Shown piece after piece: positions 17,658 to 42,809 of a DNA stretch of 64,000 nucleotides. The notes beneath the pieces were generated by a model that did no database searches, was not told the origin of the DNA, and saw nothing but the letters and a program-made list of their open reading frames with translations. Position 1 is the stretch's first letter. The number at the start of each line of letters is the position of its first letter. Where the stretch lies: contig NC_086097.1 in NCBI RefSeq assembly GCF_963921235.1, forward strand, positions 137,022,001-137,086,000, read 5' to 3'. The translations under genes and the position numbers were made by a program. Source of the DNA: Mobula hypostoma (taxonomy: Eukaryota).

Positions 17658-20375
17658 GACAGGAGATTTTGTGGACATGGGAAGGACACCCACATGGTTT
17701 GTTGCCTCCCGGGTGCCAGAGTCCGGGATGTCTCTGACCGGGTGCACAACATCCTGGTACAAGAGGGAAAGCAACCAGAAGTCGTGATACACGTTGGTAC
17801 CAACGACATAGGCAGGAAGAGGGATGAGGTCCTGAAGTGTGAGTTTCGGGAACTAGGCAGAAAGCTGAAGAACAGGACCTCAAGGGTGACATTCTCAGGA
17901 TTGCTGCCAGCGCACGTGATAGTGATGGTAAGAATTGGAGGAGATGGCAGTTGAATGTGTGGCTGAGGAGCTGGTGCAGGGAGCGGGGTTTTACATTTTT
18001 AGATCATTGGGATTTCTTCTGGGGAAGGTGGGACCTGTACAGATTGGATGGGTTGCACCTGAACTCGAGGGGGAGCAATATCCTTGCAGGTAGGTTTGCT
18101 AGCATGGTTTGGGAGGGTTTAAACTAATTTGCAAGGGGGATGGGACCCAGAGCGATAGAGCAGTGAAAGAAGTGCATGGAGTAAAGCCAGATCTAACATA
18201 TAGAGAGGCTTTGAGGAAAGAGAAGCAGAATAAACGGTGTAAAGACAGTAAGGTAGAAGGGCTGAAATGTGTGTACCTCAATGCAAGAAGCATCAGGAAC
18301 AAAGGTGATGAACTGAGAGCTTGGATACATACATGGAATTATGATGTAGTGGCCATTACAGAGACTTGGCTGGCACCAGGGCAGGAATGGATTCTCAATA
18401 TTCCTGGATTTCAGTGCTTTAAAAAGGATAGAGAGGGCGGAAAAAGGGGAGGAGGGTTGGCATTACTGGTCAGGGATACTATTACGGCTACAGAAAGGGT
18501 GGGTAATGTAGCAGGATCCTCTTTTGAGTCAATATGGGTAGAAGTCAGGAACAGGAAGGGAGCAGTTACCCTACTGGGGGTATTCTATAGGCCCCTTGAT
18601 AGCAGCAGAGATACAGAGGAGCAGATTGGGAGGCAGATTTTGGAAAGGTGCAAAAATAACAGGGTTGTTATCATGGGTGACTTTAACTTCCCTAAATTAA
18701 TTGGCACCTGATTAGTTCCAAGGGTTTAGATGGGACAGAGTTTGTTAAGTGTGTCCAGGATGGATTCCTGTCACAGTATGTGGACAGGCCAACTAGGGGG
18801 AATGCCATACTAGATCTAGTACTAGGTAATGAACCGGGTCAGGTCACAGATGTCTCAGTGGGTGAGCATCTGGGGGACAGTGACCACTGCTCCCTGGCCT
18901 TTGGCTAGGATCTTTATGTCCTTGTTGTCCACGGGAATGCTATCGGAGGATTGGAGGGAGGCGAATGTTGTCCCCTTGTTCAAAAAAGGTAGTAGGGATA
19001 GTCCGGGTAATTATAGACCAGTGAGCCTTGTGTCTGTGGTGGGAAAGCTGTTGGAAAAGATTCTTAGAGATAGGATCTCTGGGCATTTAGAGAATCATGG
19101 TCTGATCAGGGACAGTCAGCATGACTTTGTGAAGGGCAGATCGTGTCTAACAAGCCTGATAGACTTGTTTGAGGAGGTGACCAGGCATATAGATGGGGGT
19201 GGTGCAGTGGATGTGATCTATATGGATTTTAGTAAGGCATTTGACAAGGTTCCACATGGTAGGCTTATTCAGAAAGGCAGAAGGCATGTGATCCAGGGAA
19301 GCTTGGCCAGGTGGATTCAGAATTGGCTTGCCTGCAGAAGGCAGAGGGTCATGGTGGAGGGAGTACATTCAGATTGGAGGATTGTGACTAGTGGTGTCCC
19401 ACAAGGATTTCTTCTGGGACCTCTACTTTTCGTGATTTTTATTAATGACCTGGATGTGGGGGTAGAGGGGTGGGTTGGCAAGTTTGCAGATGACGCAAAG
19501 GTTGGTGGTGTTGTAGATAGTGCAGAGGATTGTCAAAGATTGCAGCGAGACCTTGATAAGATGCAGAAGTTGGCTGAGAAGTGGCAGACGGAGTTCAACT
19601 CAGAGAAGTGTGAGGTGGTACATTTTGGAAGGACAAACTCCAAGGCAGAGTACAAAGTAAATGGGAGGATACTTGGTAGTGTGGAGGAGCAGAGGGATCT
19701 CAGGGTACGTGTCCACAAATTCCTGAAAGTTGCCTCACAGGTGGATAGGGTAGTTAAGAAAGCTTATGGGGTGTTAACTTTCACAAGTCGTGGGATACAG
19801 TTTAAGAGTCGCAATGTAATGATGCAGCTCTATAAAACTCTGGTTAGGCCACACTTGGAGTACTGTGTCCAGTTCTGGTCACCTCACTATAGGAAGGATG
19901 TGGAAGCATTGAAAAGAGTACAGAGTAGATTTACCAGGATGCTGCCTGGTTTAGAGAGTATGCATTATGATCAGAGATTAAGGAAACTTTACTCTTTGGA
20001 GAGAAGGAGGATGAGAGGAGACATGATGGAGGTATACAAGATATTAAGAGGAATATTAAGTGGATAGTCAGCGCCTCTTCCCCAGGGCATCACTGCTCAA
20101 TACAAGAGGACATGGATTTAAGGTAAGGGGTGGGAAGTTCATGGGGGATATTAGAGGAAGGTTTTTTACTCAGAGAGTGATTGGTGCGTGGAATGCACTG
20201 CCTGAGTCAGTGGTGGAGGCAGATACACTAGTGAAGTTTAAGAGACTACTAGACAGGTATATGGAGGAATTTAAGGTGTGGGGTTATATGGGAGGCAGGG
20301 TTTGAGAGACGGCACAACATTGTGAGCCAAAGGGCCTGTACTGTGCTGTACTATTCTATGTTCTATGTTCTATGA
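17658..20375 (+). mobile_element. 5'-truncated, internally deleted CR1 copy of the same family as 38302-42595
   Basis: Near-identical ORF1 C-terminus, APE and RT peptides; frameshifts; about 740-bp deletion at about 18900; (TTCTATG)n tail. Confidence 0.95.
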
Positions 20376-24121: not shown

Positions 24122-27100
24122 CTGTAAGGAGATAAATAGAGGGACATTCACACCGGATAAGCAGCCTCCCTCCAACCCACTCGCTGTTCAGTGGCTGAGG
24201 TAAGTTTCGTCTCTTTCTACTCCCTCTCTCAAACTACACCAGTCTCAGTTCAGACATGTTCAAGTGGCCCTTCAGCCTTGTTACGATCCTCAGGGCAAGA
24301 TCTTGAGTCTCACTGCCCCGTAGATGAGAAACCACATCCTGATATCAGTACTGACCAACCCAGTTCGAATATTAGGGGCATGCCTCAGGAGCTGTACATC
24401 ACTGTACACAGCCTTGCCCCGTCAATTCTCTCAACTCCTTTCACCAACTCGAAATGCACAATTAGATCATTCCATAATCTGCTAATCTGAAAATACAAGT
24501 CTAGTCTACTTATGCAATTTTCTCAGTTTAATACATCCAGCTCCCAGCAGCTCTGTAGTTATAACCCTGATTTATATTACTCATTACAGCGTAGGCCAAC
24601 CAAAGTAGGGTAGTGTCCCAACATGCCAGATCCTGTGGCGAACACAATCAACAGCCATTATATTCACAGTCCTCAGCTCGAGATAAGTGCGATTCAAAAA
24701 TTGTTTAGTATTAGTTATTTCCAGTACACAAGTGTAAAGGAGAATGAAATAATGGTTGCTCCTGATTCAATGCAGCACAAAAAAAGCACAAGGAACATAA
24801 TAATAAAAAAACAATAAATATAAATACATATTTACATATACATAGTTAAATGCATGGCTCAAGGATTGGTATTGGAGAAGTGGGTTTGAATTAATGGGAA
24901 TCTGGCACCAGTACAGGGGAGGGAGGGAGGGAGCTGTTCCATTGGGACTGGCTTCACCTGAACTGTGATGGGACCTGGATTCTGGTGAATCGCATAACTA
25001 GGGTTATGGAGAGGGCTTTAAACTAAGTAGCACGGGGTGGGTTCAACAGATTGGAGAAGTATGAATTAAAAAGTGTGGATAAAGATAAAGTAACAACAAA
25101 AGTTGAAGAGAAAAGTAAGGGTGGAGCACAGAAAAGTTAAGTGCATAACAGACAAAGATTACTAGATTTTAAAAGCATAATGAGTGTAAGGGCACTTTAT
25201 CTGAAAGCCCATAGTATTCATAACAAGGTCAATGAACTTGTGACACAAATCAATATGAAGGGGCATGATCTAGTGGCCATTGCAGAAATGTGGTTGCAGG
25301 GTGGAGGGGATTGGGAATTAAATATCTAAGAATATCAGTTAATATGGAAGGGTAGGCAGGAAGGTAAGGGAGGTAGGGCAGCACTCTTAATTAAAGATGA
25401 GATCAGGGTGACAGTGAGAGATGATACAAAGTCTAAGCAGCAGAATATTGAATCCATCTGGGATGGGATTAGGAATAGTAAATGGAAAAAAAAATCATTG
25501 GTGGAAGTTGTCTATCGTCCACTGAATAATAACATTACAGTGGCACAGGCAATAAACAGAGAAATATCTGAGGCATGTAAGAATGGAACTGCATTTATTG
25601 TGGGGGACTTTAACTTGCACATAGATCGGGTGAATCAAGCTGGTTGAGACAGTCTGAGGTGAACTTCGCAGAATGCATCCATGATGGCTTACTTGAACAG
25701 CATGTTACTGAACCTACAAGGGAACGTGTAATCTTGGATCTGGTCCTGTGCAATGAGACTGGTAAAATTAGTGATCTTGTAGTTAGCGATCCTCTTAGAA
25801 ACCGTGATCACAGTATGACTGAGTTTCTCACACAAATGGAGGGTGCAATAGTTCGGTCTGAAACCAGTGTATTATGCCTAAACAATGAAGACTACAATGG
25901 GATGAGCGAAGAGTTGGACAGGGTAGACTGGAAACACAGGCTAAATGGTGGGATTGTTGAGGAACCTTGGAAGACTTTCAACAAGATTTTTCACGGTGCT
26001 CAACAAAAGTATATTCCAGTTAAAAGCAAGAACAGTAAGGATGGGAAGAGCCAGCCTTGAATAAATAAGGAAATAAAGGAAGGCATCAAACTAGAAGCTC
26101 AAGTAAGCAAAGTCACCAAGAGTAGTGGGAAAATGGAAGATTGGAAGATCTTTAAAAAGCAACAAAGAACCAATAGGTGAGTAATAAAGAAAGGGAAGAT
26201 AGATTATGAAAATAAACTAGCTCAAAATATGAAAATGGATAGTAAAATTTTTTATAATTATATAAAGTGGAAAAGGGTGGCCAAAGTGAACGTAGGTCCC
26301 TTGGAAGACGAGAAGGGGGAATTGATATTGAGTAATAAGTAATTCCTGAGGCTTTGAACAACTATTTTGTGTCAGTCTTCATGGAGGAGGACGCATCTAA
26401 CATGCTGAAGAGAGATGATATGGATACGATGGGAGGTGAGGATCTTGATACAACAGATATCACTAAAGAAGTAGTGTTGAGCAAACTTGTGGGCGTAAAG
26501 ATAGACAAGTCCCCGGGTTCTGATGGAATGTCTCCCAGGGTACTGAAAGAAATGGCAGAAGTTACAGTTGAGGCTTTGGTGGTAATTTACCAAAATTCTC
26601 TGGACTCTGGGCAGTTCCCTGCAGATTGGAAGAAGGTGAAAGTAACACCGCTGTTCAAAAGAGGATGTAGGCAAGAGGCAGGCAACCATAGGCCAGTTAG
26701 TTTAGCATCTGTAGTTGGGAACATGCTTGAAGCTATCATTAAAGAAGAAATAGCAAGGCATCTGGAAAGAAATGATTCATCAGGCAGATATAGTGTGGAT
26801 TCAGCAAAAGCAGGTCCTATTTGACAAACTTACTGGAGTTCTTTGAGGATATAATAAGCGTAGTGGATAAAGGGGAACAGATGAACCTTATTTTCTTGGA
26901 TTTCCAGAAGGCGTTCGATAAGGTGCCACATAAGAGACTTCTCCAGGATGCATAGAGCTGGGGGTGATGTATTAGCATGGATAGAGAATTGGTTAACTAA
27001 TAGAAAGCAGAGAGTTGGGATACATGGGTGTTTCTCTGGTTGGCAATCAGTGGTGAGCGGTGTGCCACAGGGGTCGGTGCTGGGCCCACAACTGTTCACG

Positions 27101-27730
27101 ATATACATTAACCATTTGGAAGAGGGAACCAAGCATTGTGTGTCTAAGTTTGCTGATGATATTAAATCGAGTGGAAAAGTAAATTGTGCAGAGGATATGG
27201 AGTGTCTGCAAAGAGATATCGATAGGTTAAGTGAGTGGGCAAGGATCTGGCAGATGGAGTACAATGTTGGTAAATGAGAGGTCTTCCACTTTGGAAGGAA
27301 AAATGGAAGAGCAGATTATTATTTAAATAGTAAAAAATTGCAGCACGCTGCTGTGCAGAGGGACTGGGAAGTGCGTGTGCTTGAATCACAAAAGGTTGGT
27401 TTTCAGGTGCAGCAGGTTATCAAGAGGGCAAATGGAATGTTGGCCTTCATTGCTGGAAGGATTGAATTTAAGAGCAGGGAGGTTATGCTGCAACTGTACA
27501 GGGTACTGGTGAGGCCACATCTGGAGTACTGTGTGCAGTTCTGGTCTCCTTACTTGAGGAAGGATATACTGGTGTTGGAGGCGGTGCAGAGGAGGTTCAC
27601 TAGGTTGATTCTTCCAGGGATGAGGTGAAGGGGTTAGACGATGAGGAGCAATTCAGTTGCCTGGGACTGTACTCGCTGGAATTCAGAAGGATAAGAGGAT
27701 ATCTTACAGAAACAGATAAAATTATGAAAA

Positions 27731-30012: not shown

Positions 30013-33000
30013 TAAGATATATTATAAACATAGATTGATTGCATGTCAGTAAGTGACGCCAGGCAGAGGAATGTCTGTATGTAAAGTGACTGACAGGAAA
30101 TGATAAAGTAGTGGTGGCCGGGGGTGTGGAGAGGTGGGTTAGTGCAGGGGTCCCCAACCCTTTTTTGCACCGCAGACCGGTTTAATATTGACAATATTCT
30201 TGTGGTCCATCCAGCCGGGGCGGGGGTGGGAGTGTTTAAGTAGGGTTAAACTCACCTCAACATGTCTTTTACAGTTAGGGTTGCCAACTTTCTCACTCCC
30301 AAATAAGGGACAAAAGTAGCAGTCAAATCCCGGGACAGTGTTTACCCCGAGAAAGACTACCATGACCATGAAGCCTTGCGCAGGCACCTGTGTGCGCATG
30401 CGCATACGTGCCAATTTTTTTCCACGAATCGGTTTTGACTTAATCTTCCCGACTACACTGTACATACATTATTTCTACTTTATATAGGCTGTGTATTTAT
30501 CATATCATTAATACACTTACTATATGTTAGTGTTATTTTCGGTTTTATGTGTTATTTGGTATGATTTGGTAGGTTATTTTTTGGATCTGGGAACGCTCAA
30601 AATTTTTTCCCATATAAATTAATGGTAATTGCTTCTTCGCTTTACACCATTTCGGCATGAAAGGTTTCATAGGAACGCTCTACCTTAGTGGGGGGAATAC
30701 GGGACAAGGGCGGTCCCGTATAGGACAAAACAACTTAGCCCAATATACGGGATGTCCCGGCAAATACGGGACAGTTGGCAACCCTATGTTCAAGTTCAAC
30801 AGTGCGTGACAGGGAATGAGGAAAGGTGCAGCTGACTCACATCGTTTCCTCGCGGCCCAGTAGCACATGCTTTGCAGCCAGGTGGTTGGGGACCGCTGGG
30901 TTAGTGGGTGGTGGTGTTGATCAGTCTTACTGCTTGGGGAAGGTAACTGTTTTTGAATCTGGTTGTCCTGGTGTGGATGCTACATAGTCTTCTCTCTGAC
31001 AGTCCATGAGCAGGGTGGGTGGATCCTTCATGATGTTACTGGCACCTTTCCGTCTATACGCTCTCGATGGTGGGTAGGCTGGTGCCAGTGATGCGTCGGG
31101 CAGTTCTGGCCACCCATTCCTGTTCTCTGCAGTGCAATTTCTGTACCGTGCAGAGACGCAGCTCGTTAAGCTGTCCTCTACTGCCCATCTGTAGAGTGAA
31201 GTGAGTATGGATGTGCAAAGTCCAGCTCTCTTCAGCCTTCTCTGAAAGTAAAGGCATTGGTGAGCTTTCTTGAATGCATATGATGCGTTCTGGAACCATG
31301 AGAGGTTGTGTGAGATCAGTTCCTTTATCTTGCTGACATTATTTGCCTGGCACCAGGCACTGAGCTCTTGCATCTCCACCCTGCTGGCCAGCTCATCGTT
31401 CTTGGTGATGAGCCCCACCATCACCGTGTCATCGACGATGTGATTGCTCGGGTGTTTGGTCATGCAAATACGTGTGAGCAGAGTGTACAGCAGTGGGCTC
31501 AGCACACATCCCTGAGGGGGCACCCGTGTTCAGGATGATGGAGAGGAAGGAGCGGTTATGCATCCTGAGGCCTGTTCGTTAGGAAGTCCAACACCCAGTT
31601 GCACAGTGGTGTATTGAGACCGAGGAGTAGGAGTTTGATCACCAAGGTCTGTGGGACAACAGTGTTGAATGCCAAACTGAAATCCAGAAACAGCATTAGC
31701 ATTCCGACAGAAATGTCCTTCTTTTCGAGGTGTGTCAGGACCAGGAGCAAGACAGATGCTATAACATCTGTCAGAGAGTGGTTCTCTCGGTAAGCACTTT
31801 GGTGAGTGTCCAGTGTGGCAACAGGGCAGCTTTTGGTATGTGCCATTATCAACCATTCAAAACATTTCGTGCTGGTTGGCATCAGTGCCACTGGGCAGGA
31901 GTCATTTAGTTCCGAAGGTGTAGAGTTCTTTGGTACAGGGATGATGGCGGCTGACTTGCAGCATGCGGGGACAGCAGCCTGGATGAGGGAAGTGTTGAAG
32001 ATGTCTGTGAAGATGTCAGTGAGCTGGTATGCACTCTCCACGAGTACTCAGGCACCTTATGGGAGATGACTTTCTGCAGAGTCCTTCCCACGCCTGCTGC
32101 TGTTACAGACAGTGGCTGCTCACCTGGGAGAGGAGTGATTTTTGTGGCAGACGTCGGGCTGCAACCCTCGAAGCGAGCGTAAAAGTCGTTTAGAGTGTCA
32201 GGGAGGGAGGTGTCACTGGCACAGTCGATGATGTTTATCCTTGCACAGTCAGTAAAGGCCCTTAATACCCAGTCGCATACACTGGAAATCGTTATTGGAC
32301 AGGTGTTCCTGAATTTTGAGGGTTCGGAGGTCTCAACCCTATCGATGCCCAAGATGAGGTTTCTCTTGCCTGTCCTGAGAGCTGCTCAGTCACCAGTCTT
32401 GAAGGCACCATCCTGGGCTTTTCGTAGGGAGCGCACCTCCATGTTCAGCTGTGGCTTCTGATTGGGCTGTGAGATGGCTGTTCTTGAAGTACTATTGACA
32501 TGCGCACACCTACTGATGCAGCTGGTGACAGCTGAGGCATAATCCTCGCGACCTCTCTCTTCTCTGGTTGTGACAGCCTCCTTGAACATCTGCCAGTTAG
32601 TACATTTAGAACAATCCGGAAATATAGAGCCCTGTATAAGTCCATTCTAAACCGTCCTCTGGATAGTCCTCTTCACTGGTTTCTCCATTTTCTGCAGCAG
32701 TCGGCATGCTGGTGTAAACTTTGTGGAGGTGTTGCCAGGGAAGTCAAGATGAGGTCAGGGGATGGCTTTGTAAGTACTGTGTCTGCTTGTATAGACATAA
32801 TCCAGTTTGTTTGTCCCCCTAGTGGCCATGGTGATGTGTTGGTAGAATTTGGGTAAAATATCCTGCAAGTTCTATGATCCAGGATTCCTGTAATTATGAA
32901 GAGACCGTCCGGATGCTTGTCTTGTAGAGGGCTGACGATACTGTAAAGCTTTCCCAGTGCGTCCTTCATGTTCGTGCTCTGGGGTGGGGGATGTTCACAC

Positions 33001-33520
33001 CAGTGATGAATGAAACAGTAAACTCCCCGAGCTGGTAATGTTTCTGGCATTTAATTATAAGATGTTCAATTGCCCCAGAACAGTGACTGCTATCTACACG
33101 TGAGTTTGTGCTTTGTCAATGTACACACAGATTCCACCTCCTCTGGATTTCCTCAACAGTGAGTCCATTAGTGTCATCCCGTCGAGTCAAAATGCCAAGT
33201 CGGTCAAGTTGTTGTTTAGTCATGTTTCAGTAAAAGCTAGAATGTAGCAGTTTCTCATCTCTTTCTGTGCAATCATTCACAGTCTCAGTGAGTCCATTTT
33301 AATTTCTAGCGAGCGGACATTGGCCAGGAAAAGTGATGGTTCTGCTGGTATGGTTGGATTAGCTCTCAGCCGAGCTGGTGCCCTCACTCATCTGCTGCAT
33401 TTCTATGTCCTCTCACACTGCCTTTGTTACAAGTTATTACAGATTTCTCTCTGGTGCCTGAAAACCATCTAGGATGCAGGAGAAGAAACATTTCCTAAGT
33501 GATCTGCAGTGATGTGCCAG
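30013..33520 (-). mobile_element. Decayed Rex1/Babar-like LINE (endonuclease plus RT), interrupted by a hAT element
   Basis: Fragments LANVRSL, AFTET*L, RGGGICVY, LNDFYARFE, IIPVPK, DFSLAFNTVVP, WVLDFLTNRPQ, PQGCVLSPLLYTL, KKAHQCLYF. Boundaries approximate. Confidence 0.8.
30145..30898. mobile_element. Non-autonomous hAT (Charlie/Buster-type) element
   Basis: TIRs CAGGGGTCCCCAACC / GGTTGGGGACCGCTG; perfect 8-bp TSD GGTTAGTG (nnnTAnnn). Confidence 0.92.
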
Positions 33521-33789
33521 AGCTACTAGTATTTGATGGAAGGTAAATTGGACAAGATTTTCATTACATATGGTATAGAGTTGGGATTGGATGATGAGTT
33601 GGCGAAATCACCTGCATTTCTACTCCAAGTTTCAGCCCTACAGAAATGCCCCCTGACAACTATAAAGCGAGATGTCTACTTTCTGAAACGTATACACCAT
33701 CGGCATTGGTAGCTGGTTTATTATCGTCCTGTGTACTGAGATACGGTGAAAAGCCTTTGTTTTGCATGCAATCTAGCCAGATCACACTA

Positions 33790-35100
33790 TACAAAATGCT
33801 GGAGGAACTCAGCAGGCCAGGCAGCATCTATGGAAAAAAAGTACAGTTGACGTTTTGGGCTGAAACCCTTCGGCAGGACTGGAAGGAAAAGCAGAGGAGT
33901 AGATTTGAAAGGTGGGGGAGGGGAGAGACAGACACCAGGTGATAGGTGAAACCTGGAGGAGGAGGGATGAAGTAAAGAGCATAGAAGCTGATTGGTGAAA
34001 GAGACAAAAGCCCATAGAAGAAAGAAGAAAGGGTGGGGTAAGCACCAGAGGGAGACGATAGGTGGGCAAGGAGATAACATGAGAGAGGGACAAGGGGATG
34101 GGAAATGGTAAAGGGGGGTGGGGGGAGGCATTACATGCCATCAGGTTGGAGGCTACCCAAACGGAATACAAGGTGTTGTTCCTCTGACCTATGTGTGGCC
34201 TCATCACGACAGTGGAGGAGGCCATGGAGGGACATATCAAAATGGGAATGGGAAGCAGAATTAAAATGGGTGGCCATTGGGAGATCCCGCCTGTTCTGGC
34301 AGACAGAGCGTAGATGCTCGGCAGAGCGGTCTCTCAATCTATGTCGGGTCTCACCGATATACAAGAGGCCACACCGGGAGCACTGAACACAGTAGAAGAC
34401 CCCAACAGACTCACAGATGAAGTGTCGCCTCACCTGAAAGGACTGTTTGGGGCCCTGAATGGTAGTGAGGGAGGAGGTGTAGAAACAGGTGAAGCACTTG
34501 TTCTGCTTGCAAGGATAAGTGTCAGGAGGGAGATCAGATCAGTGGGGAGGGATTAATGGACAAGGGAGTCGCGTAGGGCGAAATCCCTGTGCAAAGCAGA
34601 AAGTGGGGGGAGGGGAAGATGTGTTTGGTGGTGGGATCCAGTTGAGGGGGCGGAAATTTCGGAGAATTATGTATTGGACACGGAGGCTGGTGGGGTGGTA
34701 GGTGAGGACAAAAGGAACCTTATCCCTGGTAGGGTGGAGGGAGGATGGGGTAAGATCAGACGTGTGTGAAGTGGAGGAGATGCGGTTGGGGACAGCGTTG
34801 ATGGTAGAGGAAGGGAAGCCCCTTTCTTTGAAAAAGGAGGACTTCTCCTTCGTTCTAAAATGAAAAGCCTCATCCTGAGAGTGGCTGCAATGGAGACGGA
34901 GGAATTGAGAGAAGGGGATGGTGTTTTTACAAGTAGCAGGGTGGGACGACGTATAGTTCAGGTAGCTGTGAGAGTCCGTTGATTTATAATAGACATCAGT
35001 GACAAGCTGTTTCTGGAGATCGAGACAGTGAGATTGAGAAAGGGAAGGGAAGCGTTGGAAATGGACTAGGTGAATTTGAGGGCCGGGTGGAAGCTGGAGG
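33790..35100 (-). mobile_element. Penelope-like element 3' part (RT C-terminus, GIY-YIG endonuclease, terminal repeat)
   Basis: Peptides TDVYYKSTDSHSYLNYTSSHP..CKNTIPFSQFLRL and GVFYCVQCSRCGLLYIGETRHRLRDRSAEH...HFN...LGSLQPDGM. Confidence 0.88.
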
Positions 35101-35554
35101 CTTCTTTTGTTTGTGGTTTGTTTACGACTGTGCACTCTTGTCTGTGATTTCATGCTATACATCTTGCATTAAGGTAGTAAAATGTCAGTCTTCTGTATGT
35201 TCTTCTATCTGACAGGAGAGGGGAGAAGGGAGAACGCCCAGGGCTGGAGGCATCCTAGACTATGCTGGCGGCTTTCCTGAGGCAGCTGGAAATGAAGATG
35301 GAGTCCATGTAGTGATGACTGGTTTGTGAGATGGACTGGGCTGCGTTCACAATTCTCTGCAATTATTTTCAGACTTGGGCAGAGCGGCAGCAATACCGCA
35401 CTGTGATGCATCGGACAGGCTGCTTTCTAGAATGCACCTGGAATAATGGGCGAGGGTCACTGGGGACGTCCTTCGCTTTCTGAGCATGTAGAAGTGTTAC
35501 TGTGCTTTCTCGGCCTTAGCATCCAGGAGGCTGGACCAGGTTATATTTTTGGTG

Positions 35555-38114: not shown

Positions 38115-38366
38115 AACACGTGTAAAGAAGTAGCAAAACATTAAAACAGGATGAAGAATATAGGGTCACAATTACAGAGAAAGTAGACATATAAAATGTA
38201 ACAACCATGATGAGGCAGAATGAGAGATTAAGAGTTCACCTCTACCATACATGGAGCTGTTCAAGTCTCAACACAGCAGGACAGAAGTTGTCCTCGAGCT
38301 TGAACATAGAACATAAAATAGTACAGCACAGTACAGGCCCTTCAGCCCACAATGTTGTGCCGACCC

Positions 38367-41300
38367 TCAAACCCTGCCTCCCATATAAGCCCCCACCTTA
38401 GATCCCTCCATATACCTGTCTAGTAGTCTCTTAAACTTCACTAGTGTATCTGCCTCCACCACTGACTCAGGCAGTGCATTCCACGCACCAACCACTCTCT
38501 GAGTAAAAAACCTTCCTCTAATATCCCCCTTGAACTTCCCACCCCTTACCTTAAAGCCATGTCCTCTTGTATTGAGCAATGGTGCCCTGGGGAAGAGGTG
38601 CTGGCTATCCACTCTATCTATTCCTCTTATTATCTTGTACACCTCTATCATGTCTCCTCTCATCCTCCTTCTCTCCAAAGAGTAAAGCCCTAGCTCCCTT
38701 AATCTCTGATCATAATGCATACTTTCTAAACCAGGTAGCATCCTGGTAAATCTCCTCTGTACCCTTTCCAATGCTTCCACATCCTTCGTATAGTGAGGTG
38801 ACCAGAACTGGACACAGTACTCCAAGTGTGGCCTAACCAGAGTTTTATAGAGCTGCATCATTACATCGCGACTCTTAAACTCTATCCCTCGACTTATGAA
38901 AGCTAACACCCCATAAGCTTTCTTAACTACCCTATCCACCTGTGAGGCAACTTTCAGGGATCTGTGGACATGTATCCCGAGATCCCTCTGCTCCTCCACA
39001 CTACCAAGTATCCTGCCATTTACTTTGTACTCTGCCTTGGAGTTTGTCCTTCCAAAGTGTACCACCTCACACTTCTCTGGGTTGAACTCCATCTGCCACT
39101 TCTCAGCCCACTCCTGCATCCTATCAATGTCTCTCTGCAATCTTTGACAATCCTCTACACTATTTACAACACCACCAACCTTTGTATCATCTGCAAACTT
39201 GCCAACCCACCCTTCTACCCCAACATCCAGGTCGTTAATAAAAATCACGAAAAGTAGAGGTCCCAGAACAGATCCTTGTGGGACACCACTAGTCACAATC
39301 CTCCAATCTGAATGTACTCCCTCCACCACCACCCTCTGCCTTCTGCAGGCAAGCCAATTCTGAATCCACCTGGCCAAACTTCCCTGGATCCCATGCCTTC
39401 TAACTTTCTGAATAAGCCTACCATGTGGAACCTTGTCAAATGCCTTACTAAAATCCATATAGATCACATCCAGTGCACTACCCTCATCTATATGCCTGGT
39501 CACCTCCTCAAAGAACTCTATCAGGCTTATTAGGCACGATCTGCCCTTCACAAAGCCATGCTGACTGTCCCTGACCAGACCATGATTCTCTAAATGCCTA
39601 TAGATCCTATCTCTAAGAATCTTTTCCAACAGCTTTCCCACCACAGGCGTAAGACTCACTGGTCTATAATTACCCAGACTATCCCTACTACCTTTTTTGA
39701 ACAAGGGGACAACATTCGCCTCCCTCCAATCCTCCGATACCATTCCCGTGGACAACAAGGACATAAAGATCCTAGCCAGAGGCTCAGCAATCTCTTCTCT
39801 CACCTCATGGAGCAGCCTGGGGAATATTCCGTCAGGCCCCGGGGACTTATCTGTCCTAACGTATTTTAACAACTCCAACACCTCCTCTCCCTTAATATCA
39901 ACATGCTCCAGAACATCAGCCTCACTCATATTGTCCTCATCATCATCAAGTTCCCTCTCATTGGTGAATACCGAAGAGAAGTATTCATTGAGGACCTCGC
40001 TCACTTCCATAGCCTCCAGGCACATCTTCCCACCTTTATCTCTAGTCGGTCCTACCTTCACTCCTGTCATCCTTTTTTTCTTCACATAATTGAAGAATGC
40101 CTTGGGGTTTTCCTTTACCCTACTTGCCAAGGCCTTCTCATGCCCCCTTCTTGCTCTTCTCAGCCCCTTCTTAAGCTCCTTTCTTGCTTCCCTATATTCT
40201 TCAATAGACCCATCTGATCCTTGCTTCCTAAACCTCATGTATGCTGCCTTCTTCCACCTGACTAGATTTTCCACCTCACTTGTCACCCATGGTTCCTTCA
40301 CCCTACCATTCTTTATCTTCTTCACTGGGACAAATTTATCCTTAACATCCCACAAGAGATCTCTAAACATCGACCACATGTCCATAGTACATTTCCCTGC
40401 AAAAACATCATCCCAATTCACACCCGCAAGTTCTAGCCTTATAGCCTCATAATTTGTCTTTCCCCAATTAAAAATTTTCCTGTCTTCTCTGATTCTATCC
40501 TTTTCCATGATAATGCTAAAGGCCAGGAAGCGGTGGTCACTGTCCCCCAGATGCTCACCCACTGAGGGATCTGTGACCTGACTCAGTTCATTACCTAGTA
40601 CTAGATCTAGTATGGCATTCCCTCTGGTCGGCCTGTCCACATACTGTGACAGGAATCCGTCCTGGACACACTTAACAAACTCTGCCCCATCTAAACCCTT
40701 GGAACTAATCAGGTTCCAATCAATAAAGTCACCTATGATAACAACCCTGTTATTTTTGCACCTTTCCAAAATCTGCCTCCCAATCTGCTCCTCTGTATCT
40801 CTGCTGCTACCAGGGGGCCTATAGAATACCTCCAGTAGAGTAACTGCTCCCTTCCTGTTCCTGACTTCCACCCATATTGACTCAAAAGAGGATCCTGCTA
40901 CATTACCCACCCTTTCTGTAGCTGTAATAGTATCCCTGGCCAGTAATGCCAACCCTCCTCCCCTTTTTCCGCCCTCTCTATCCCTTTTAAAGCACTGAAA
41001 TCCAGTGAGAATCCATTCCTGCCCTGGTGCCAGCCAAGTCTCTGTAATGGCCACTACATCATAATTCCATGTATGTATCCAAGCTCTCAGTTCATCACCT
41101 TTGTTCCTGATGCTTCTTGCATTGAGGTACACACATTTCAGCCCTTCTACCTTACTGTCTTTACACCATTTATTCTGCTTCTCTTTCCTCAAAGCCTCTC
41201 TATATGTTAGATCTGGCTTTACTCCATGCACTTCTTTCACTGCTCTATCGCTCTGGGTCCCATCCCCCTTGCAAATTAGTTTAAACCCTCCCGAACCATG
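38367..41300 (-). CDS. CR1 ORF2 (APE endonuclease plus reverse transcriptase); stop-to-stop frame, no AUG before the endonuclease domain
   Basis: Motifs LNARS, ITETWL, YRPP, LDLVL, SDH, KSPGPDG, YRPVSLT, DFSKAFDKV, GVPQGSVLGP, KFADDTK, RPHLEYC. The ORF-track start at 41240 is GTG. Confidence 0.92.
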   Translation of the reverse strand, partial: HGSGGFKLICKGDGTQSDRAVKEVHGVKPDLTYREALRKEKQNKWCKDSKVEGLKCVYLNARSIRNKGDELRAWIHTWNYDVVAITETWLAPGQEWILTGFQCFKRDREGGKRGGGLALLARDTITATERVGNVAGSSFESIWVEVRNRKGAVTLLEVFYRPPGSSRDTEEQIGRQILERCKNNRVVIIGDFIDWNLISSKGLDGAEFVKCVQDGFLSQYVDRPTRGNAILDLVLGNELSQVTDPSVGEHLGDSDHRFLAFSIIMEKDRIREDRKIFNWGKTNYEAIRLELAGVNWDDVFAGKCTMDMWSMFRDLLWDVKDKFVPVKKIKNGRVKEPWVTSEVENLVRWKKAAYMRFRKQGSDGSIEEYREARKELKKGLRRARRGHEKALASRVKENPKAFFNYVKKKRMTGVKVGPTRDKGGKMCLEAMEVSEVLNEYFSSVFTNERELDDDEDNMSEADVLEHVDIKGEEVLELLKYVRTDKSPGPDGIFPRLLHEVREEIAEPLARIFMSLLSTGMVSEDWREANVVPLFKKGSRDSLGNYRPVSLTPVVGKLLEKILRDRIYRHLENHGLVRDSQHGFVKGRSCLISLIEFFEEVTRHIDEGSALDVIYMDFSKAFDKVPHGRLIQKVRRHGIQGSLARWIQNWLACRRQRVVVEGVHSDWRIVTSGVPQGSVLGPLLFVIFINDLDVGVEGWVGKFADDTKVGGVVNSVEDCQRLQRDIDRMQEWAEKWQMEFNPEKCEVVHFGRTNSKAEYKVNGRILGSVEEQRDLGIHVHRSLKVASQVDRVVKKAYGVLAFISRGIEFKSRDVMMQLYKTLVRPHLEYCVQFWSPHYTKDVEALERVQRRFTRMLPGLESMHYDQRLRELGLYSLERRRMRGDMIEVYKIIRGIDRVDSQHLFPRAPLLNTRGHGFKVRGGKFKGDIRGRFFTQRVVGAWNALPESVVEADTLVKFKRLLDRYMEGSKVGAYMGGRV

Positions 41301-42225
41301 CTAGCAAACCTACCTGCAAGGATATTGCTCCCCCTCGAGTTCAGGTGCAACCCATCCAATCTGTACAGGTCCCACCTTCCCCAGAAGAGATCCCAATGAT
41401 CCAAAAATCCAAAACTCCAAAACCCTGCTCCCTACACCAACTCCTCAGCCACACATCCAACTGCCATCTCCTCCAATTCTTACCATCACTGTCACGTAGC
41501 ACTGGTAGCAATCCTGAGAACGCCACCCATGAGGTCCTGTTCTTCAGCCTTCTGCCTAGTTCCCGAAACTCACACTTCAAGACCTCATCCTTCTTCCTGC
41601 CTATGTCATTGGTACCAATATGTATCACGACTTCTGGCTGCTTTCCCTCTCGTACCAGGATGTCGTGCACCCGGTCAGAGACATCCCGGACCCTGGCACC
41701 CGGGAGGCAACAAACCATGCGGGTGTCCTTCTCACGTCCACAAAACCTCCTGTCTGCTCCCCTGACTATAGAGTCTCCAATGACGACAGCTCTCCTCTTC
41801 TCCGTCCCACCCTTCTGCACCACCGGGTCAGACTCAGTGCTGGAGGCCCTGCCACCGTGGCTTACACCTGGTCGGTCGTCCCCACCAACAGTATCCAGGA
41901 TGGTAAACTTATTTTTCAGGGGAATGGCTACAGGGGTGCTCTGCACTACCTGTCTGCTCACCTTTGCTTTCCCCCCTCTGACTGTCACCCAATGACCTGC
42001 TTCCGACAGCCTAGGTGTGACTACCTCCCTGTAGCTCTCATCTATGACTGCCTCATTCTCCCTTACGAGTCGAAGGTCATCCAGCTGCTGCTCCAGATTC
42101 CTGACACGGTCTTCCAGATCGCCCAGCCGTATGCACTGCTGGCAGATGTGACTCTGCGGGAGAGGGGAGTTCCCCCAAGACTGCCACATCTCACATGAGA
42201 GGCACATCACCGTCTCAGGAGACAT
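41276..42225 (-). pseudogene. CR1 ORF1 (CxxC...CxxC zinc finger, leucine zipper, SGNH esterase-like), frameshifted by an 8-nt duplication
   Basis: ATG at 42225. Motifs CLSC...CQQC, GDSIVR, LPGA, HIGTND. TCCAAAAC is duplicated at 41408-41423; removing one copy restores ...LDGLHLN...EGLN* (942 nt). Confidence 0.9.
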
Positions 42226-42809
42226 TGTAAAAACTAACAAGGAACAAGCTCATCCTCTGCCTCTTCTTGTCGAAGCCTCTCGAGTCAAAGCCTCAAAGCT
42301 CCACTCCTTCACTGGCCCACTCACGCACTGGCTGCTTCGATTGAGCTGTCCCTCTATTTATCTGTTTGAGCTTTTCAAAATGTTTGGTCACCTGACTTCG
42401 ACTGCCCAATTAGCTGCTTTCTGCTGAGTCTGAGCTATTCAAATCTCGATTGTCTAATCAACAGCTTTCTGCTGATCTATTCAAATCTTGATTGACTTAA
42501 TTGCGCAGACCAACTGCCAAAACTGCCAGAACCTCTCGAGTCAAAGTCTCAAAGCTCCACTTCTTCACTGGCCCACTCACGCACTAGCCGCTTTCCTGGT
42601 CCTGGTGGTACTCAAGCTATTTTGTACATTTTGCCTGGTGAAGGGGGTGAGAAGAGAGAATGGCCAGGTGGTAGGGCTCTTTGATTATGTCGGTGGCTTC
42701 CCCGAGGCAGTGGGAAGTGCAGAAGGAGTCACTGGAGGAGAAGCCAGTTTTCAGGAAGGTCTGGCTCTGGCTTTGATGAGGAGTTGAAGCTTAGCCATGT
42801 GATACCTAC

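Follow-up and report, generated by a model that had tools for sequence, protein, structure and literature searches.

A conserved slippery heptamer and a candidate −1 frameshift between ORF1 and ORF2 of esterase-type CR1 retrotransposons

The CR1 copy in the window

The window is a stretch of 64,000 nucleotides of the Mobula hypostoma genome (contig NC_086097.1, positions 137,022,001 to 137,086,000), and all coordinates are window positions. Its minus strand carries a near full-length LINE copy of family A at 38302 to 42596, with an approximate 5' end since the sibling alignments stop between 42584 and 42596. The element is presumably of the CR1 type, a label given from its architecture. Among the LINEs of birds, reptiles, and cartilaginous fishes, CR1 is the principal one; it ends in a short microsatellite in place of poly(A). 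The 3' tail of the copy reads ttctatgttc (38311 to 38302), and tattttatgttctatgttc at 38320 to 38302, at this 3' end, resembles a decayed repeat. A first-look search of genome G000 gave 722 candidates for the family A copy, the best 40 of the 722 at 99 to 100% identity, and more than 120,000 ORF1 candidates in this genome alone.

ORF1 (41276 to 42225, minus strand) was assigned by frame reading and by comparison with the intact sibling L028. It encodes a zinc-finger/coiled-coil part, with CxxC pairs present in the translation, and an SGNH esterase, and it ends in ...REGLN*. ORF1 of L028 matched PF13472 of Pfam (E 1e-13) and the ORF1 esterase of PDB entry 4c1b (E 7e-30). In the window copy, ORF1 is broken. 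Eight extra bases at approximately 41408 to 41415, private to this copy and missing from its relatives ("left out 8" at 41408), shift the frame into a TGA at 41343 to 41341. The statement in the first-pass annotation that ORF1 runs into the junction with ORF2 is correct for intact siblings but not for the window copy itself.

ORF2 (38367 to 41300, minus strand; frame reading and Pfam) is open, with 977 stop-free codons, and encodes an APE endonuclease (PF03372, residues 59 to 256) and a reverse transcriptase (PF00078, residues 536 to 758), with no other Pfam family and no RNase H. It has small in-frame deletions, the GDFN motif among them. The plus strand of the window contains a second, 5'-truncated family A copy (17660 to 20302) with the same junction (heptamer at 18118 to 18124) and an old, divergent CR1 of family B (24880 to 27622), with an ORF2 30 to 46% identical and GCT TTA AAC TAA at about 25015 to 25026.

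The ORF1-ORF2 junction

The ORF1 frame ends on the minus strand with GAG (41290 to 41288), GGT (41287 to 41285), TTA (41284 to 41282), AAC (41281 to 41279), and the stop TAA (41278 to 41276). Reading the sequence gave two overlapping heptamers in ORF1 phase, G_GGU_UUA at 41288 to 41282 and U_UUA_AAC at 41285 to 41279. ORF2 lies in the −1 frame. It becomes open behind a TAG at 41303 to 41301, whose offset is −25 in all 31 copies of family A, and overlaps ORF1 by 25 nt. Apart from the family A count, all of this had been annotated before, and both heptamers had been regarded as relevant. This held for U_UUA_AAC, the candidate shift site, which is conserved in 127 of 137 ray-genome copies from seven families, but not for the lineage-restricted G_GGU_UUA, which occurs in 29/31 copies of family A, 11/12 of E, 15/20 of G, and 3/5 of F but in 0/29 of B, 0/20 of C, and 0/20 of D. 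Missing from three of the seven families, G_GGU_UUA was rejected as a working shift site.

The ORF1 stop directly 3' of the heptamer is TAG in 12, TAA in 7, and TGA in 1 of 20 lineage representatives. A G-tract, GGGGG-N2-GGG (41268 to 41259, minus strand), follows 10 nt past the heptamer, is conserved in a comparison of 19 lineages, and is a candidate stimulator. Between the junction and the first endonuclease Asn, the −1 frame forms an AUG-free linker of 155 nt (41278 to 41124, minus strand). Of the 31 family A copies, 29 have this linker open, and 28 of these 29 have no AUG in it.

Conservation of the heptamer between lineages

The 20 lineage representatives, with ORF1 tails that were 20 to 89% identical, were picked blind to the motif. 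Their last ORF1 codons were NNT in 20, TTA in 20, and AAC in 19 of the 20 cases, with the complete T|TTA|AAC in 19, so that the synonymous drift looked for at the heptamer between lineages was not found. The codon use of the same ORF1 tails, in which TTA represents 10% of the Leu and AAC 36% of the Asn codons, yields a chance expectation for T|TTA|AAC of 0.0096 per lineage, to be read with the shared ancestry of the lineages in mind, which makes counts across representatives not independent trials. The conservation of the heptamer is far beyond chance. In 16 other conserved ORF1 columns used for comparison, the commonest codon occurred in only 43 to 94% of the rows, the most biased being one Asp codon with 16 of 17. 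The T-ending codon preceding TTA encodes eight different residues across the lineages. The heptamer is conserved beyond what the amino acids need.

How well the copies of one family agree with each other was not counted as proof of selection because inserted copies decay neutrally. A search of the own genome for DNA of the clade with Gly-Asn or Gly-Phe endings (below) yielded only U_UUA_AAC-type families, and the heptamer was intact at 11 of 15 loci, changed from AAC to AGC at two, and broken at one.

The −1 frame, the linker, and AUG positions

In almost all lineages read, no stop interrupts the −1 frame between the heptamer and the endonuclease. The endonuclease starts in this frame in 31/31 copies of family A, 11/17 of C, 10/13 of D, 10/10 of E, 4/4 of F, 14/17 of G, 1/2 of H, and 1/1 of I and also at seven single metagenome loci. 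Linkers of 110, 125, 140, 149, 152, 155, 182, 194, 197, 209, 251, and 323 nt were found, and family B linkers in the −1 frame had 185 and 194 nt. In most ray families, with family D as the exception, the −1 frame closes 13 to 25 nt upstream of the ORF1 stop.

The first AUG of ORF2 had been placed beyond the endonuclease, which applies to the window copy (residue 265, FSIIMEK, 40508 to 40506) but not to intact siblings. In 16 of 26 sibling copies listed, it lies inside the endonuclease, 131 codons past the first endonuclease Asn (V-I-M-G-D-F), and the window copy reads ATA (40736 to 40734) at this position. An AUG ahead of the APE domain, as considered in the first-pass annotation, is missing from family A but present in several other lineages. 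Ahead of the endonuclease, an AUG is missing from seven lineages (A, F, H, I, L061, L062, and L101) and also from 5 of 11 family C copies. Distant AUGs occur at +38 in B, +47 in G, and +107 in E, and the stretch above the AUG is still open and in phase. An in-frame AUG is positioned 2 nt past the start of the stop in family D and L083, as a UAAUG overlap, and 5 nt past it (2 nt past the stop itself) in the bird-type loci L066, L067, L069, L071, and L113, which would permit reinitiation there. In family A the corresponding bases are UAAUU, and a stop-start AUG of the SART1 type is missing. For L089-type loci, a stop-start arrangement at AUGA was rejected because that −1 frame closes ahead of the endonuclease.

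The dN/dS evidence for the linker is mixed, with L061/L062 giving 0.84, next to 0.65 and 0.43 in their other frames and 0.13 in the endonuclease, and L063/L067/L069 giving 0.32 to 0.60. No fused ORF1-ORF2 family was found among longer relatives in a weak search with 2 matches; one of these, P0212, is a single in-frame ORF1-endonuclease copy.

The G-tract and the downstream RNA

The positions +11 to +15, which form the GGGGG, were G in 19, 18, 17, 19, and 18 of 19 lineages, and those of the second G run, +18 to +20, in 15, 16, and 15. Folding revealed no stimulatory structure shared by the 19 lineages (z −1.76 to +1.47), in agreement with the earlier remark that no convincing one was visible; the conserved downstream feature is the G-tract. 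This indicates that the junction is not of the classical structure-stimulated −1 frameshift type. Taken alone, the 96-nt segment from the window had a fold z of −3.45, and the first 70 nt of that segment had one of −0.37. A hairpin 5 nt past the heptamer in family A was rejected since it is not common to the 18 other lineages. A possible G-quadruplex appeared in the minimum-energy fold of 6 of the 19 lineages, family A not being among them. The search for a long-range downstream partner of the G-tract gave none that was shared, the best duplexes being at differing places, and the recurring duplexes were upstream, in C-rich ORF1 codons. Rfam had 0 matches at the junction. Contigs of six runs of presumed-RNA or unknown type had no joint starting at the G-tract among the joints listed and no substitution in 41272 to 41291 among the substitutions listed; neither result carries evidential weight.

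ORF1 endings in distant relatives

Among 96 distant ORF1 representatives, 42 end in Leu-Asn. Tails of 25, 26, 27, 32, and 39 residues past the DGxH motif all end this way, and the solved esterase 4c1b aligns without a terminal Leu-Asn. The dipeptide therefore tracks the stop and not the fold. ORF1 of a distant clade ends in Gly-Asn or Gly-Phe/Phe-Phe, which is compatible, at the protein level, with other slippery heptamers. The end dipeptide suited a canonical heptamer in 29 of 98 non-LN tails (mean of 6.4 and maximum of 16 in 2000 shuffles), in a test devised after the tails had been seen and with 24 of the 29 tails ending in GN, 18 of these 24 in QGN, mostly from one clade. No DNA of the GN/GF clade was found in viral contigs, prokaryote genomes, or plasmids.

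A proposed mechanism and its alternatives

As judged from the sequences, ORF2 at the junction of esterase-type CR1 elements is probably made by a programmed −1 ribosomal frameshift as an ORF1-ORF2 fusion. The gag-pol-like reading proposed in the first-pass annotation came through every sequence test that was able to refute a −1 frameshift; each favored it. In a ribosome ending ORF1, the tRNA-Leu on UUA and the tRNA-Asn on AAC would slip back to UUU AAA. CUA (or CUG) would be read next, followed by a variable linker of 36 to 107 codons, the endonuclease, and the reverse transcriptase, with the predicted joint ...REGLN-LICKGDG.... From the transframe peptide predicted before, EGLN-LICK was retained but FK was not; EGLK-LICK would be expected instead, if tRNA-Leu kept the P site. 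Most ribosomes would stop, so that ORF1p would be in excess over a fusion made in a small, constant proportion, similar to Gag and Gag-Pol. More tentatively, the pause may result not from a hairpin or pseudoknot but from the stop plus an unstructured G-tract, protein-bound at the mRNA entrance of the ribosome.

Termination and reinitiation near the ORF1 stop, at an AUG or a non-AUG codon, would produce a separate ORF2p, with the heptamer-like sequence and the G-tract holding or positioning the 40S subunit. This is unlikely but the strongest of the alternatives, with the UAAUG of family D and L083 and the close AUGs of the five bird-type loci in its favor. LINE-1 reportedly tolerates a non-AUG start, as is said of work by Alisch in 2006. 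Reinitiation is the known route of SART1, with a UAAUG and a required downstream RNA structure, and was proposed for LINE-1, in the parts of PMC3708506 and PMC5972666 consulted. A common start codon, AUG or near-cognate, does not exist at the CR1 junctions, however; the bases past the stop vary freely, the seven lineages named above are without an AUG ahead of the endonuclease, and reinitiation does not explain the in-phase X_XXY_YYZ identity or the GN/GF/FF/KN endings.

Less probable still is a different role for the motif, as a signal at the RNA or DNA level (a splice acceptor of a spliced ORF2 mRNA, an internal promoter, or a packaging or protein-binding site), with ORF2 coming from a separate message. 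An A at +10 before the G-tract yields AG|G in 13 of 19 lineages, and a branch-point-like ACUAA is located upstream, but in the 6 lineages without this AG the heptamer and the G-tract are retained, copies of family A have either AAG or GAG, an internal transcript would still be without an AUG in family A, and it would not explain why the heptamer has its −1 phase with respect to both ORFs. Least probable of all is a protein constraint or inherited chance, meaning that ORF1p requires a C-terminal Leu-Asn with codons frozen by ancestry. The many distant LN endings and the codon bias elsewhere in ORF1, up to the 16 of 17 for one Asp, agree with it, but the 20-representative codon comparison largely refuted it: the rare TTA is present in all 20, and its preceding T-ending codon stands for eight residues. 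LN at five distances from the fold and its absence from the solved esterase argue in the same direction, and ORF2 translation would not be explained.

Relation to known systems

The proposed frameshift resembles that of coronaviruses such as IBV and of gag-pol, with the same in-phase heptamer, a short overlap, and a structural ORF followed by a −1 enzyme ORF; U_UUA_AAC, G_GGA_AAC, A_AAA_AAC, and G_GGU_UUU belong to the heptamers at which mammalian ribosomes shift most readily, according to the consulted part of PMC5009743. Unlike these viral and LTR signals, the CR1 signal belongs to a non-LTR element, has the stop adjoining the heptamer, and has no conserved hairpin or pseudoknot. Since Pfam revealed no protease in CR1 ORF2, a fusion would not process itself as in viral and LTR systems. 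In the arterivirus PRRSV, CCCANCUCC is positioned 11 nt 3' of the slippage site and is bound by nsp1beta and a poly(C)-binding protein (PMC5009743, in part). The CR1 GGGGG from +11 is likewise short, without structure, and rich in one nucleotide, and its spacing is constant, but it is G-rich, and it is a candidate for the protein-bound type by analogy only.

Among APE-type non-LTR elements, TRE5-A and TRE3-A of Dictyostelium need a −1 frameshift for ORF2, as given in a figure legend of the review PMC5911963, but CR1 is of a different clade with a different ORF1. SART1 and LINE-1 share with CR1 the bicistronic LINE RNA, and the UAAUG overlap also occurs in CR1 family D; as far as the sources consulted go, their ORF2 AUG is at or after the stop, whereas in family A and in six further lineages no AUG precedes the endonuclease. 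LINE ORF2 cases studied so far use reinitiation. ORF2 translation from bicistronic LINE RNA is described as unclear in the part of PMC3708506 consulted. The literature searched gave nothing on a frameshift in CR1; outside its scope were the 1997 accounts of CR1 in chicken and turtle, Kojima 2005, Kapitonov and Jurka 2003, Alisch 2006, and the Repbase/Dfam notes, any of which may contain such a mention. The word "frameshift" does not occur in the consulted parts of PMC4120745 and PMC3905857, which do not address the route of ORF2 translation.

If the frameshift is true, the active CR1 enzyme would be an esterase-endonuclease-RT fusion, ORF2 annotations starting at an internal Met would truncate the endonuclease, and CR1 assays would require an intact junction. 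A frameshift without a fold but with a G-tract at a fixed distance would be a new kind of stimulator; the candidate signal spans about 30 nt.

A wider proposal, on the whole rather doubtful, is that an entire branch of the animal LINEs, with an esterase ORF1, makes Gag-Pol-like fusions by recoding. Vertebrate CR1 and distant relatives would use U_UUA_AAC with the stop and a protein-bound G-tract, a clade that is probably crustacean would use G_GGA_AAC, G_GGU_UUU, or U_UUU_UUN, and another clade would use readthrough of a single in-frame UGA. The element shares its ORF1 Cys pairs, coiled coil, and SGNH esterase and the APE and RT of its ORF2 with type IVB CR1 LINEs, the type of CR1 subgroup 7 that has a zinc finger/leucine zipper and esterase in ORF1 (Metcalfe and Casane 2014, PMC4120745, in part). 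Named relatives of the element occur in rays, sharks, a turtle, and an eel. The range of type IVB is given as "exclusively vertebrate" in the part of PMC4120745 consulted, whereas related esterase ORF1s adjoined crab and crayfish matches here. In an esterase tree, which was unrooted and weak at depth, the ray rows were apart from the ...RTI group.

ORF1-ORF2 junction in the window

The CR1-type LINE of family A was located on the minus strand at about 42596-38302 (4.3 kb), with an upstream ORF1 for Cys pairs, a coiled coil and an SGNH esterase and, on the same strand, a 977-codon open ORF2 frame for the APE endonuclease and the reverse transcriptase. The nearest named relatives of ORF1 were ray proteins, at 86-95% to Mobula proteins across part of the query. 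As read from the sequence, ORF1 ends with GAG GGT TTA AAC TAA (41290-41276, minus), and the ORF2 frame, one base back from that of ORF1, is limited upstream by a TAG at 41303-41301 (minus). The anatomy of the signal was directly visible, and re-reading the window confirmed the coordinates and the phase assigned to the junction by the first-pass annotation. The window copy is dead because 8 extra bases near 41408-41415 end its ORF1 at 41341 and its ORF2 has lost residues in the endonuclease motif GDFN, plus a Met carried by its siblings just ahead of this motif. Its junction is typical, being present in 31/31 family A copies. The 5' UTR contains a unit of ~60 nt in two copies (42277-42337 and 42529-42596, minus) with shorter repeats between them, which are candidate promoter units.

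Conservation of the heptamer

For comparison, further families were collected from the ray genome, and metagenome and viral contigs supplied 54 loci. An esterase-tail HMM, blind to the motif, was used to locate where ORF1 stops; of 195 records, 168 could be anchored, and most of the remaining 27 were cut off ahead of the junction. Two overlapping slippery heptamers had been proposed: U_UUA_AAC was conserved, being intact in 127 of 137 copies from seven ray-genome families, but G_GGU_UUA was absent from families B, C, and D.

Lineages were compared with one copy each of nine ray-genome families and 11 metagenome loci (n = 20; bird-type, plus the distant loci L061 and L062), excluding loci with a tail indel and seven loci with an in-frame stop. 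The ORF1 tails of these representatives were 20-89% identical (median, 34%), and synonymous sites elsewhere in them have clearly turned over. The third-last codon specified eight different residues, yet ended with T in 20/20 lineages; the second-last was TTA in 20/20 and the last AAC in 19/20, followed by TAG, TAA, or TGA. T|TTA|AAC was kept in 19 of 20 lineages versus a chance of 0.26 × 0.10 × 0.36 = 0.0096 for each, calculated from the codon usage of these ORF1 tails, which is not a p-value since the lineages are related. At 16 other conserved ORF1 columns, the shared codon occurred in 43-94% of the rows. The heptamer has been conserved beyond amino-acid constraint, a point on which the first-pass annotation had asked for a check.

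Frame and start codons of ORF2

Counted from the heptamer, the endonuclease began in the −1 frame in most copies of every readable lineage (family B and locus L083 were not captured by the scoring pattern). The linkers ahead of it were 110-323 nt long and had little in common in sequence from lineage to lineage. In families A, B, C, E, F, G, H, and I, a stop closed the −1 frame 13-25 nt upstream; the open stretch was about 160 nt long in family D and 49-121 nt long in several single loci. The closing codon in 24/28 family B copies is a TAG two codons upstream of the heptamer (overlap, 13 nt); the window has a family B copy with just the last ~150 nt of ORF1 at 24880-25030 (plus). The other two linker frames contained stops in 27/30 cases (one open copy per lineage, selected for an open −1 frame). 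Because dN/dS values were mixed, 0.32-0.60 in three bird-type pairs and 0.84 for L061/L062, selection on linker residues is weak or unproven. Families C and D (L115-L134 versus L135-L154) share a linker, to which C adds 18 codons, including a second G-tract unit, with the frame preserved.

Mechanism of ORF2 expression

The junction signal is, judged by these comparisons, real and conserved and probably functional, and programmed −1 frameshifting at U_UUA_AAC is its probable function. tRNA-Leu and tRNA-Asn would slip in tandem from UUA AAC to UUU AAA, and CUA would be read next, with a predicted transframe joint ...REGLN-LICKGDG..., or ...EGLK-LICK... for a slip ahead of Asn decoding. The fusion would be a minority product alongside free ORF1p. 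We infer the slippage, its efficiency, and the role of the stop and of the G-tract.

The main rival is reinitiation, as described for SART1 and LINE-1 in the parts of the sources consulted (PMC3708506, PMC5972666). The first-pass annotation had placed the first AUG of ORF2 past the whole endonuclease domain. An AUG ahead of the endonuclease was absent from 28/29 open family A copies, from families F, H, and I, from L061, L062, and L101, and from 5/11 family C copies, but not from all lineages: UAAUG was found at the stop in family D and L083, an AUG two bases past the stop in five bird-type loci, and one further downstream in B, E, G, and L063, with the heptamer retained in each case. These AUGs count against a simple story, and reinitiation may occur alongside frameshifting in lineages with a near AUG; as the explanation of the junction, reinitiation is unlikely. 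A splicing or promoter role fits the data poorly and is very improbable, and constraint on the protein, equally a poor fit next to a third-last codon that varies in residue and keeps its T, is slightly less probable still.

Downstream region

G was found at positions +11 to +15 past the heptamer in 19, 18, 17, 19, and 18 of 19 lineages and at +18 to +20 in 15-16/19, while the seven bases between the stop and +11 varied. Because GGG accounts for 31% of the Gly codons in ORF2, the G-tract reflects a base-level constraint. Folding of the downstream region, as suggested by the first-pass annotation, did not yield a shared stimulatory structure: no common fold was detected in 70-nt windows of 19 lineages (z, −1.76 to +1.47), and the 96 nt of the window itself, with a z of −3.45 the sole result favoring a structure, formed stems not common to other lineages. 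The CR1 junction has the coronavirus heptamer and would work like a viral −1 signal, but lacks the shared downstream fold that classical −1 signals require. An arterivirus C-rich motif, protein-bound and 11 nt after its shift site according to part of a review (PMC5009743), resembles the G-tract in its fixed spacing, by analogy only.

According to a figure legend in a review (PMC5911963), expression of ORF2 in Dictyostelium TRE5-A and TRE3-A depends on a −1 frameshift. "CR1" did not occur in the first 300,000 of 449,034 characters of the frameshifting review PMC5009743, nor "frameshift" in the available portions of two papers on esterase ORF1s (PMC4120745, PMC3905857); those of PMC4255032 and PMC5006619 had no bearing on the question. 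The portions of literature searched held no report of a CR1 frameshift; an earlier mention, for instance in the original CR1 papers of 1997 or in databases of repeats, is possible. A −1 frameshift here would be recoding of a known type, in a class of hosts for which the portions examined do not describe it, and would surprise a LINE specialist.

Wider relatives

A profile search over 1.84 billion representatives gave 12,838 matches. The best 150 included 96 with a readable esterase tail, 42 of these ending with LN, which stood at five different spacings from the DGxH motif, and a further 10 with GN. With 45 further tails added, 71/140 ended with a dipeptide encodable by a canonical heptamer (shuffle mean, 10.4), and 29/98 when LN was set aside (shuffle mean, 6.4; maximum, 16; 2000 shuffles), in a test of protein sequences only that was devised after the tails had been seen. 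In an esterase tree of 58 rows with weak deep forks, LN, GN, KN, and GF/FF endings were interleaved. Since the heptamer-encodable endings exceeded shuffles and were interleaved, these protein tails suggest exchange among U_UUA_AAC, G_GGA_AAC, A_AAA_AAC, and G_GGU_UUU, the four heptamers named as most shift-prone in the part of PMC5009743 consulted.

The ORF1 proteins P0113, P0118, P0119, P0227-P0231, P0235-P0261, and others end with xGN, GF-x, GFF/GFL, or KN; at the protein level, all of these endings are encodable as slippery heptamers. This clade is probably crustacean since its named relatives are Portunus and Procambarus. SGN/SKN and PQGN/QGKN were sister pairs in the tree. In P0032, P0212, and P0100, each a single genomic copy annotated as a host protein, a one-base change has brought ORF1 into frame with ORF2 (...GFKL...). 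P0021 and P0258, CR1-type ORF1 proteins under bacterial names (Pseudomonas aeruginosa; Brocadiaceae MAG), are likely animal DNA contamination.

A separate clade of esterase-ORF1 LINEs (L089, L093-L097, L103) had no heptamer, and its ORF2 followed in the ORF1 frame behind one stop (0-based positions: L089, 3986; L093, 2883; L094, 754; L096, 1111; L097, 832; L103, 586). The stop was UGA-C in four loci, UGA-U in two, and UAA in L095; the frame was open to the endonuclease in 7/7, without an AUG in L089, L093, and L097. This looks like stop-codon readthrough to the same ORF1-ORF2 fusion. A more distant element bearing a reverse transcriptase, at 24-31% to CR1 ORF2 and with several broken ORFs, was present in the window at 31400-32050 (minus), within 30927-35168.
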